Source: an uncultured Clostridia bacterium
GTDB lineage: Bacteria; Bacillota; Clostridia; TANB77; CAG-508
DNA length: 59,199 nt
NCBI GenBank assembly: GCA_944387525.1
Contig: CALXFF010000005.1
Coordinates: forward strand, 1-59,199
Direction of reading: 5' to 3'
The position numbers were made by a program, and so were the translations under genes. Under the pieces are notes generated by a model. It ran no database searches. It was not told where the DNA came from and worked only from the letters and a program-made list of their open reading frames with translations. Positions 58,546-58,945 of the stretch are shown piece after piece. Numbering within the stretch: position 1 is the first letter of the stretch; each line of letters starts with the position of its first letter.

Positions 58546-58574
58546 TTGACAAAAGTAAAAAATGTGTGTATAAT
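58546..58574 (+). promoter_or_regulatory. Perfect sigma-A consensus promoter TTGACA-17-TATAAT
   Basis: TTGACA at 58546-58551, a 17-nt spacer and TATAAT at 58569-58574. No protein gene lies downstream. Confidence 0.7.
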
Positions 58575-58580
58575 AATTAT

Positions 58581-58668
58581 AGGAAATGGAGAAACCACAA
58601 AGTGGTTCGCCAGAAATATGTATTTAAAAAACACACCTAACTGGGCAAAGTTACAGATGTGTTTTTTT
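58581..58668 (+). ncRNA. Candidate antitoxin sRNA of about 88 nt
   Basis: It starts about 7 nt after the consensus -10, has an internal hairpin AACCAC-AAA-GUGGUU, and ends at the terminator hairpin 58631-58661 plus U7. Its 3' end is antisense to the peptide mRNA, and its 5' part is complementary to that mRNA's SD region. Confidence 0.5.
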
Positions 58669-58675
58669 ATTGGTT

Positions 58676-58795
58676 TTATTGTTTGCTAATAATTACAACT
58701 AATGCTATAACTAAGGCAAACGTAATGATAGTTACTGATACCAGACCAGCAAAAAGTAGTTTTATTATTAACAATAATGCTTTTATTTCTACCAT
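58676..58795 (-). CDS. 39-aa hydrophobic peptide, type I toxin-like
   Basis: Below the ORF-track cutoff. AAGGAGGTGA lies 5 nt before the ATG. Translation MVEIKALLLIIKLLFAGLVSVTIITFALVIALVVIISKQ*. An anti-SD CCUCC lies just upstream. Confidence 0.55.
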   Translation of the reverse strand: MVEIKALLLIIKLLFAGLVSVTIITFALVIALVVIISKQ

Positions 58796-58916
58796 ACGCC
58801 TCACCTCCTTGTTGGAGGCAAACCACATCTGCTTATAACGCTGCCAAATTGCGAAGCAATTTGTGTATTATTCAGGTAAGCGTTATATCTAGATATTCTC
58901 ATTTCCTATGTTATAT

Positions 58917-58945
58917 ACTATACAATAATTTTGGCTAAAAAACAA
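58917..58945 (-). promoter_or_regulatory. Putative promoter of the peptide mRNA (TTGTTT-17-TATAGT)
   Basis: It would give a 5' UTR of about 115 nt. The first transcribed bases, AUAGGAAAUGAGAA, mimic the sRNA 5' end AUAGGAAAUGGAGAA. Confidence 0.45.

Follow-up and report, generated by a model that had tools for sequence, protein, structure and literature searches.

A hydrophobic peptide gene opposed by a predicted antisense RNA gene

The DNA analysed here, referred to as the window, is a 59,199 nt stretch from the genome of an uncultured Clostridia bacterium (contig CALXFF010000005.1, positions 1 to 59,199). Near its right-hand end, positions 58546-58945 contain one copy of a module, unannotated here, in which a gene for a small hydrophobic peptide on the minus strand faces a gene for a predicted small antisense RNA (sRNA) on the plus strand. 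The peptide open reading frame (ORF), read from 58795 to 58679 with its stop codon at 58678-58676, encodes a 39-aa putative toxin, MVEIKALLLIIKLLFAGLVSVTIITFALVIALVVIISKQ, that ends ...VVIISKQ and has a grand average of hydropathicity (GRAVY) of 2.16. It is preceded, in the minus-strand mRNA, by the Shine-Dalgarno (SD) sequence AAGGAGGTGA at 58801-58810. An initial annotation of this DNA, made from its letters alone, had pointed to a 39-aa hydrophobic ORF behind a strong SD, and both are present at these positions and conserved in relatives. The strong SDs and sigma-A-type promoters fit a gut Clostridia/Bacillota host, and the nearest named relatives of the window are metagenome-assembled genomes (MAGs) of uncultured gut Clostridia/Bacillota, Clostridium sp. 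CAG:245 among them.

Copies of the module were sought in related genomes with a search pattern of 29 bases from the sRNA 5'-end. The same peptide-sRNA arrangement was found: the pattern occurs in 81 genomic stretches from ~72 species-representative genomes (human, chicken, goat, rabbit and mouse gut), and nhmmer located 116 module copies in the fetched DNA. Modules are roughly 340-400 bp long. In the window the boundaries are 58546/58558 and 58945/58952, and an 18-copy alignment places the conserved module at 58558-58836 plus 58894-58952, nearly the coordinates of the initial annotation. At 90 of the 111 sRNA anchors there is an intact hydrophobic ORF of 34-46 aa, with an SD, at a fixed distance. 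This conservation across copies argues that the arrangement is more than chance and, judged from such sequence comparisons, the module is a genuine, conserved and unannotated unit of a peptide and an antisense RNA.

The fetched loci encode 61 distinct peptides, and purifying selection on the ORF is apparent. The median pairwise ratio of nonsynonymous to synonymous change (dN/dS) is 0.38, with 93% of 353 pairs below 1, codon position 2 has the fewest changes in the pairwise comparison of the family, and the gaps that separate peptide subtypes are 3 and 9 nt long, and so in frame. The MVE start is conserved across copies together with its SD. The motifs M[VI]E, (V/T)TII and FALII are nearly invariant, and the clusters, with an SK(Q) end, are all small and homogeneous. 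By these measures the peptide ORF is a real, selected gene. Two other reading frames in the same mRNA were considered and rejected. A 50-aa ORF, on record in metagenomes as an over-extended form of the peptide predicted by gene callers, begins at an upstream ATG that lacks an SD and is missing from subtype C, and the frame of a 13-aa upstream ORF from a 5' AUG is not preserved in other subtypes. A 539-aa ABC-transporter-like protein (P0004) also falls into the 90%-identity cluster of the 50-aa form (P0001), probably as a clustering artefact.

A peptide-profile search returned 834 clusters at 90% identity, or 181 at 50% identity, all of them without a Pfam domain and without an informative name. 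Sequence searches of the family against Pfam, NCBIfam, PADLOC and the PDB gave no meaningful match, Pfam and NCBIfam toxin families compared with 28 and 41 family members gave no match at E<=1, and the peptide motifs had no match in a full-text search of the literature. The RNAs of the locus returned only noise from Rfam at both gathering and permissive thresholds, and a search of the locus for tRNA and tmRNA found none.

Predicted sequestration of the ribosome binding site

Upstream of the ORF, a candidate promoter on the minus strand has a -35 element, TTGTTT (58945 to 58940), separated by 17 nt from a -10 element, TATAGT (58922 to 58917), which would place the transcription start site (TSS) near 58909. 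The initial annotation had listed this putative promoter, and most copies have such a sequence at the same position, TTG[TA]TT-17-TATA[GC]T, weaker than the sRNA promoter described below. With its ends predicted from the promoter and terminator, the mRNA would extend on the minus strand from 58909 to 58625, ~285 nt in the window and ~228 nt without an insert that most copies lack. Its predicted fold, at -77.3 kcal/mol, is more stable than those of dinucleotide shuffles (z = -4.1).

Within this mRNA, a complementary anti-SD sequence, CCTCC (58814-58818), lies just upstream of the SD. It had been noted that the one could fold onto the other, and the pairing is predicted to be a 9-bp helix (58800..58822, minus strand) of UUUGCCUCC (58822 to 58814) and GGAGGUGAG (58808 to 58800) around the loop AACAA. 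Over 45 unique 5'-untranslated regions (5'-UTRs), the SD is predicted to be unpaired with a mean probability of 0.057, as compared with 0.46 when the upstream sequence is shuffled, and for the window copy the value is 0.01. Sequestration is conserved across lineages, with compensatory changes, in two structural forms. In the first, CCUCC-loop-GGAGG forms a short hairpin whose loop measures 5-12 nt and which shows the double change CCCCC/GGGGG in one locus (L051); in the second, GCCACC (or CCACC) or CUACCAC pairs over a long range with GGUGGUG, around an inner hairpin.

A predicted convergent antisense RNA that shares the terminator

On the plus strand, 58546..58574 is a promoter sequence that matches the consensus at all 12 of 12 positions: TTGACA (58546-58551), 17 nt, then TATAAT (58569-58574). 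It is the sole 12/12 match in 1.7 kb scanned. Promoter-like sites in that scan number 14, with 13.8 expected from shuffles, and therefore the scan alone is no evidence. The perfect promoter reported in the initial annotation is, however, conserved: TTGAC[AT] and TATAAT, 16-18 nt apart, are present in 69 of 69 unique copies within divergent flanks, the -35 element being outside the search pattern, and also in all five loci that were fetched through divergent peptides alone.

The predicted antisense sRNA, a putative antitoxin, would extend from about 58581 to 58668 (~88 nt, plus strand) and consists of a leader, a 5'-hairpin, an A/U-rich linker and the terminator; its predicted fold has an energy of -21.2 kcal/mol (z = -2.9 relative to dinucleotide shuffles). 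The 5'-hairpin (58587..58612, plus strand) is formed by the arms UGGAGAAACCAC and GUGGUUCGCCA around the loop AAA. No covariation of this hairpin is seen within the pattern-selected set; in two other loci the helix is kept with other sequences, AACACA/UGUGUU in L100 and AGCCACA/UGUGUGCU in L105. As had been proposed, the sRNA has no credible ORF. A peptide encoded by it was considered and rejected, as its only ATG (58586-58588) is replaced in several copies (ATAGAG, ATTGAG, ACAAG).

Both predicted transcripts would end at one bidirectional intrinsic terminator, 58626..58667, with arms at 58626-58638 and 58655-58667 that are 92% complementary, an A-run upstream and seven Ts downstream. The initial annotation had a single hairpin terminating both RNAs with an overlap of ~40 nt, and the sequence supports this, with a predicted tail-to-tail overlap of ~44 nt (about 58625-58668). 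In the window copy, a G-U pair on the mRNA strand corresponds to a C-A mismatch on the sRNA strand. Pairing in the outer helix reaches 91.8% over 46 distinct sRNAs, and the helix covaries: two pairs have compensatory changes, in 18 cells, a result reached by none of 500 shuffles. The covariation was counted on a supplied helix, as RNAalifold applied to a MAFFT alignment of the sRNAs missed the terminator because of loop indels. A UUUG sequence is present in the terminator loop of the window (58649 to 58646) and UUUC in several copies, a motif that carries too little information to count either way.

Tandem arrays, inactivated copies and the ends of the module

The module is often found in tandem, with as many as five diverged units in one array, repeated every ~556-588 bp. 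There are five copies in L004 and three each in L001, L007, L021 and L089, with toxin subtypes A, B and C mixed. The terminator loops of neighbouring copies in an array differ, as would suit sRNAs that each have to recognise their cognate mRNA and no other.

At ~12 of the 111 sRNA anchors there is no intact toxin ORF. The inspected cases have a stop at codon 5, frameshifts, a deletion of the SD and start codon, or only a 3'-remnant of the gene, and in all of them the 5'-part of the sRNA is retained. Copies with an inactivated ORF are at L022 6784-6914, L032 ~320-700, L090 ~1252-1659, L096 ~5049-5419, L023 ~5540-5731 and L069 ~5808-6011, and here both the sRNA 5'-region and its promoter are intact.

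The two predicted RNAs of the module begin in the same way, with a common leader of 9-13 nt, AUAGGAAAUG(G)AGAA. In the window the mRNA leader, AUAGGAAAUGAGAA (58896..58909, minus strand), and the sRNA leader (58579-58593, plus strand) form an inverted repeat that matches at 10 of 10 positions. A second block is also common to both RNAs in the same sense, the anti-SD arm of the mRNA being the same as the 3'-arm of the sRNA 5'-hairpin. The leader and the second block co-vary in both RNAs in divergent lineages (L100, L101, L104, L105 and L108).

An organization in which the module ends form an imperfect inverted repeat of promoter plus leader, and which is present in many copies, in arrays and at varied genomic sites, might be taken for selfish repetitive DNA resembling a miniature inverted-repeat transposable element (MITE), with imperfect terminal inverted repeats that contain promoter-like sequences and with the ORF and 'sRNA' as incidental contents. 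We consider this very improbable. The dN/dS of 0.38, the in-frame indels, the conserved SD and start codon, and RNA helices with compensatory changes all argue against it. Moreover, the inverted-repeat blocks are internal, within the transcripts rather than terminal, and no target-site duplication or association with a transposase was seen.

Additional complementarity between the two RNAs

The initial annotation had also drawn attention to a second region of complementarity, near the ribosome binding site (RBS), between GGAGAAACCACA in the sRNA (58588-58599) and GGAGGCAAACCACA in the mRNA (58814-58827). The complementarity is real, and it amounts to 8+5 bp with a 2-nt bulge rather than the 8+4 bp first counted. 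The direct repeat from which it was recognised exists because the anti-SD arm of the mRNA and the 3'-arm of the sRNA's own hairpin are identical in sequence. The sRNA would, however, pair here with the anti-SD arm and not with the SD, so that this contact alone would expose the SD. It surpasses shuffled sequences weakly (mean z = -1.5), its calculated energy is -16.8 kcal/mol in the main class of copies as compared with -3.9 to -8.7 kcal/mol in six other lineages, and CAAG variants retain it weakly or not at all. The duplex prediction did not bear the contact out: it is absent from the predicted minimum-energy dimers, in which both hairpins persist. That neutralisation should occur mainly by such a par-like second contact of GGAGAAACCACA at the anti-SD/SD switch is, in our judgement, unlikely. 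The 8+5 bp in the window and in most main-class copies favour it, and the sRNA 5'-arm and the mRNA UTR do loosely co-track, as the UTR copies the 3'-arm of the sRNA; set against these are the freed SD, the dimer predictions and the limited distribution.

A different pairing is predicted within the mRNA itself. An element of the 5'-UTR, here designated E5 (GCAGAUGUGGUUU, 58820..58832, minus strand), is complementary over 12 nt (92%) to the 5'-arm of the mRNA's own terminator (58654-58665). The energy of the cognate duplex is -14.6 kcal/mol as compared with -6.6 +/- 2.2 kcal/mol for shuffles, and in six lineages, with differing sequences, the pairing has -14 to -18 kcal/mol. Pairing of E5 with the terminator arm of the sRNA is weaker (-6.4 to -13 kcal/mol), and the E5 fold-back is predicted to be less stable than the local terminator hairpin. 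These values suggest a 5'-3' fold-back or an antitermination role.

Together, the shared blocks and E5 could conceivably constitute an RNA switch of a kind undescribed for type I systems, in which the sRNA hairpin and the mRNA SD hairpin would exchange strands, the sRNA 5'-arm capturing the anti-SD and the sRNA's copy of the anti-SD capturing the SD, while E5 would compete with the sRNA for the terminator 5'-arm as a fold-back or antiterminator. We regard this as quite unlikely. If true, it would mean control by mimicry between two RNAs instead of simple antisense pairing.

Optional inserts in the 5'-UTR

The perfect stems and the palindrome that the initial annotation recognised in the 5'-UTR are present and belong to an optional insert and its junction, not to the core of the family. 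This structured 57-nt insert (58837..58893, minus strand) consists of the nested helices ATAACGCT/AGCGTTAT and CAAATTGC/GCAATTTG, and the 12-bp palindrome ATATCTAGATAT spans the insert junction. It is missing from all 17 other copies in the first alignment, including a contig (L006) that is 98-99% identical, and it is present at the same site in L022, L023, L063, L066 and L108, in modules with different toxin subtypes. The L066 insert has a compensatory T>C/A>G change. The insert may stabilise the 5'-end of the mRNA. A free-living MITE was considered and rejected as its identity since, in a metagenome scan, the insert occurs only inside modules, the sole match being within one.

A second and unrelated insert of 62-63 nt (GCGGGGTAGAGC...GGGTCTAGCCGTG), located 3 nt from the same UTR site and flanked by repeated ATAAGC, is present at L027 ~2090-2152, L044 ~4723-4786, L084 ~7268-7340 and L096 ~5129-5168. 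In L096 it is joined to the deletion of the SD and start codon. This insert was not found outside modules.

Genomic setting

The window has 27% G+C and is chromosomal, with mfd at 52377-55841 and an adjoining rlmB-like gene. Beyond ~56.5 kb, up to its right-hand end, the window is accessory, with small genes that recur at 88-95% identity in metagenome contigs, where their neighbours include HTH (HTH_3), RepA_N, HNH and Fic genes. In four metagenome contigs homology to the window ends at 58530, just before the module, and L006 and L013 carry it. This sharp boundary, together with the two carriers, indicates that the module is a discrete cassette with presence/absence polymorphism.

The part of the accessory stretch to the right of mfd, 56500-58530, is mosaic (compare L011-L018) and contains a 150-aa ORF, a 68-aa ORF with a transmembrane (TM) segment and its 99-aa partner ORF, as well as an 88-aa Cys-rich ORF that weakly matches DUF6078. 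Divergent from the toxin promoter is a 53-aa ORF (58967-59128, plus strand) whose N-terminal part is hydrophobic and whose tail, NRPKRKIRRYK, is very basic. No obvious SD precedes this ORF, no family matches it, and its exact sequence is absent from the protein collection searched. Elsewhere in the window, a very long ORF of 2745 aa occupies 19635-27872 on the minus strand.

Relationship to type I toxin-antitoxin systems

Type I systems easily escape detection, since annotation rarely covers their peptides and RNAs and the families lack sequence similarity to one another. As reviewed, the characterised type I examples in Clostridia are mainly from C. difficile (PMC6563280). By architecture, the closest system to the module is par of pAD1 with its chromosomal homologues (Fst, RNA I/RNA II; PMC7472228), which has convergent promoters, a shared bidirectional terminator with loops that initiate pairing, and a 5' stem-loop that sequesters the SD (PMC7472228). 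Convergent promoters, overlap at a bidirectional terminator, an SD-sequestering stem-loop and a small single-helix peptide are likewise features of the module, and the RNAs are of similar size (sRNA ~65-90 nt, mRNA ~210-230 nt). There are also clear differences. Unlike the Fst/Ldr signature, the module peptide has no Trp before a highly charged tail, a Trp in this position being confined to a minor MIEF...FIQWTNKE subtype, and the window peptide has no Trp and no P/D/S/TxxxG, as none of these four residues is present four positions before Gly17. Comparison of the peptide profile with Fst by hhalign gave a probability of 0.7%. The module also lacks a DRa/DRb-type duplex over the SD and start codon, its additional complementarity covering the anti-SD and not being conserved, and the 5'-blocks of its two RNAs are identical rather than complementary.

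TxpA/RatA, BsrG/SR4 and CD2517.1/RCd8-type systems have complementary regions that are longer than the ~44-nt terminator overlap of the module. With all of these, the module has in common convergent genes that overlap at their 3'-ends and a membrane peptide (28-60 aa in those systems), and duplex-dependent decay by RNase III, Y or J would be the expected mode in the module as in the Bacillus and C. difficile systems. Both Bacillus and C. difficile are documented to have convergent systems with 3'-overlap, and toxins of the C. difficile systems have 50-53 aa and charged C-termini (PMC6563280), as compared with 39 aa and the tail SKQ in the module peptide. Probabilities from hhalign were 9.3% for BsrG and 1.3% for TxpA. 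The remark in the initial annotation that the peptide was not recognised as a member of the par/Fst, TxpA/RatA or BsrG/SR4 families agrees with the absence of any profile match in the toxin-family searches. Its assignment of the architecture to these types stands for the convergent genes and shared terminator and holds less well for the contact near the RBS, which is strong only in the main class.

SprA1/SprA1AS of Staphylococcus aureus resembles the module in that a cis antisense RNA overlaps the 3'-end of the mRNA, in that the non-overlapping 5'-domain of the sRNA is a candidate functional region, and in that antitoxin excess is expected in both. PepA1 is a member of the Fst family, and the SprA1AS 5'-domain targets the RBS together with the start codon, a pairing that has no conserved counterpart in the module. 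An inert fold of the toxin mRNA is a likeness to hok/sok and AapA1/IsoA1, and the pairing of E5 with the terminator arm resembles their 5'-3' fold-back. In hok/sok and AapA1/IsoA1 the antisense RNA overlaps the 5'-region and trimming of the 3'-end activates the mRNA; the antisense RNA of the module overlaps the 3'-end of the mRNA.

We infer from this architecture that the module is, more likely than not, one copy of a new, previously undescribed type I toxin-antitoxin family with a par-like layout in uncultured gut Clostridia, with transcription, toxicity of the peptide and antitoxin action of the sRNA all putative. The core of this reading, a hydrophobic peptide with a sequestered SD, a convergent sRNA and a bidirectional terminator, was that of the initial annotation and has been strengthened by the comparative evidence.

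Several observations weigh against the type I assignment. Most copies were ascertained through the pattern from the sRNA 5'-region, and the apparent conservation of that region is inflated accordingly. The ~44-nt overlap is made up entirely of the two terminator hairpins, which would have to unfold before they could pair, and no trans contact with the SD or start codon is conserved across lineages. Characterised type I toxins have much longer and more charged C-terminal tails than the SKQ of this peptide. Core genes adjoin many copies (Spo0A at 23 loci, a UPF0029 gene at 17, an HI0933-like gene at 15 and TopA at 10), blastn and tblastn searches of phage and plasmid collections with the locus and the peptide found no copy, and neither did searches of IMG/VR viral contigs with the sRNA pattern and the peptide profile; therefore, a role in stabilising a plasmid or prophage is not indicated. 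A mobile-element context, or one with the topoisomerase TopB, was considered and rejected, the recurrent neighbours being the core genes Spo0A, TopA, UPF0029 and HI0933-like, and no association of the module with a prophage or CRISPR was seen.

Some of these features would also be expected from the main alternative, in which the peptide is a small membrane protein that is not toxic, such as one that modulates a membrane complex, and its synthesis is tuned by a cis-antisense RNA. The near-invariance of M[VI]E, (V/T)TII and FALII makes the peptide unusually conserved for a generic membrane-disrupting toxin, its tail is short and barely charged, many copies are at recurrent chromosomal sites by core genes (spo0A, topA, yigZ-like), and no toxin family matches it. 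We nevertheless regard this alternative as unlikely, if less so than the other explanations considered. Tandem arrays of diverged paralogues, presence/absence polymorphism and retention of the sRNA beside an inactivated ORF typically mark selfish or toxic modules, and a buried SD opposed by an antisense promoter of consensus strength would be unusual for a housekeeping small protein.

If the module is a type I system, a moderate promoter would generate an mRNA of ~230-285 nt for the 39-aa single-helix membrane peptide, and this mRNA by itself would be nearly silent in translation because the 9-bp anti-SD helix buries the SD. The near-consensus convergent promoter would supply the ~88-nt sRNA in excess, and the final ~44 nt of the mRNA, the whole of the bidirectional terminator, would find a perfect complement in this sRNA. 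Pairing probably starts between the complementary terminator loops and would then result in duplex-specific decay (by RNase III, Y or J) or in an mRNA locked in an inert complex. Opening of the SD is probably tuned by the two shared 5'-blocks and by the 5'-UTR element that pairs with the mRNA's own terminator arm. These RNA features, the shared 5'-blocks and the UTR-terminator pairing, could make the module a mechanistic variant of type I systems.

Implications

The locus would define a new and abundant family in uncultured, low-GC gut Clostridia, organisms not yet open to direct study. An alignment of the family is at hand for genome annotation, and its natural covariation maps the RNA helices. 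The identical 5'-blocks, the UTR-terminator pairing and the optional inserts may bear on how toxin mRNAs are silenced. Should the peptides prove non-toxic, the family would still be one of widespread small membrane proteins under antisense control.

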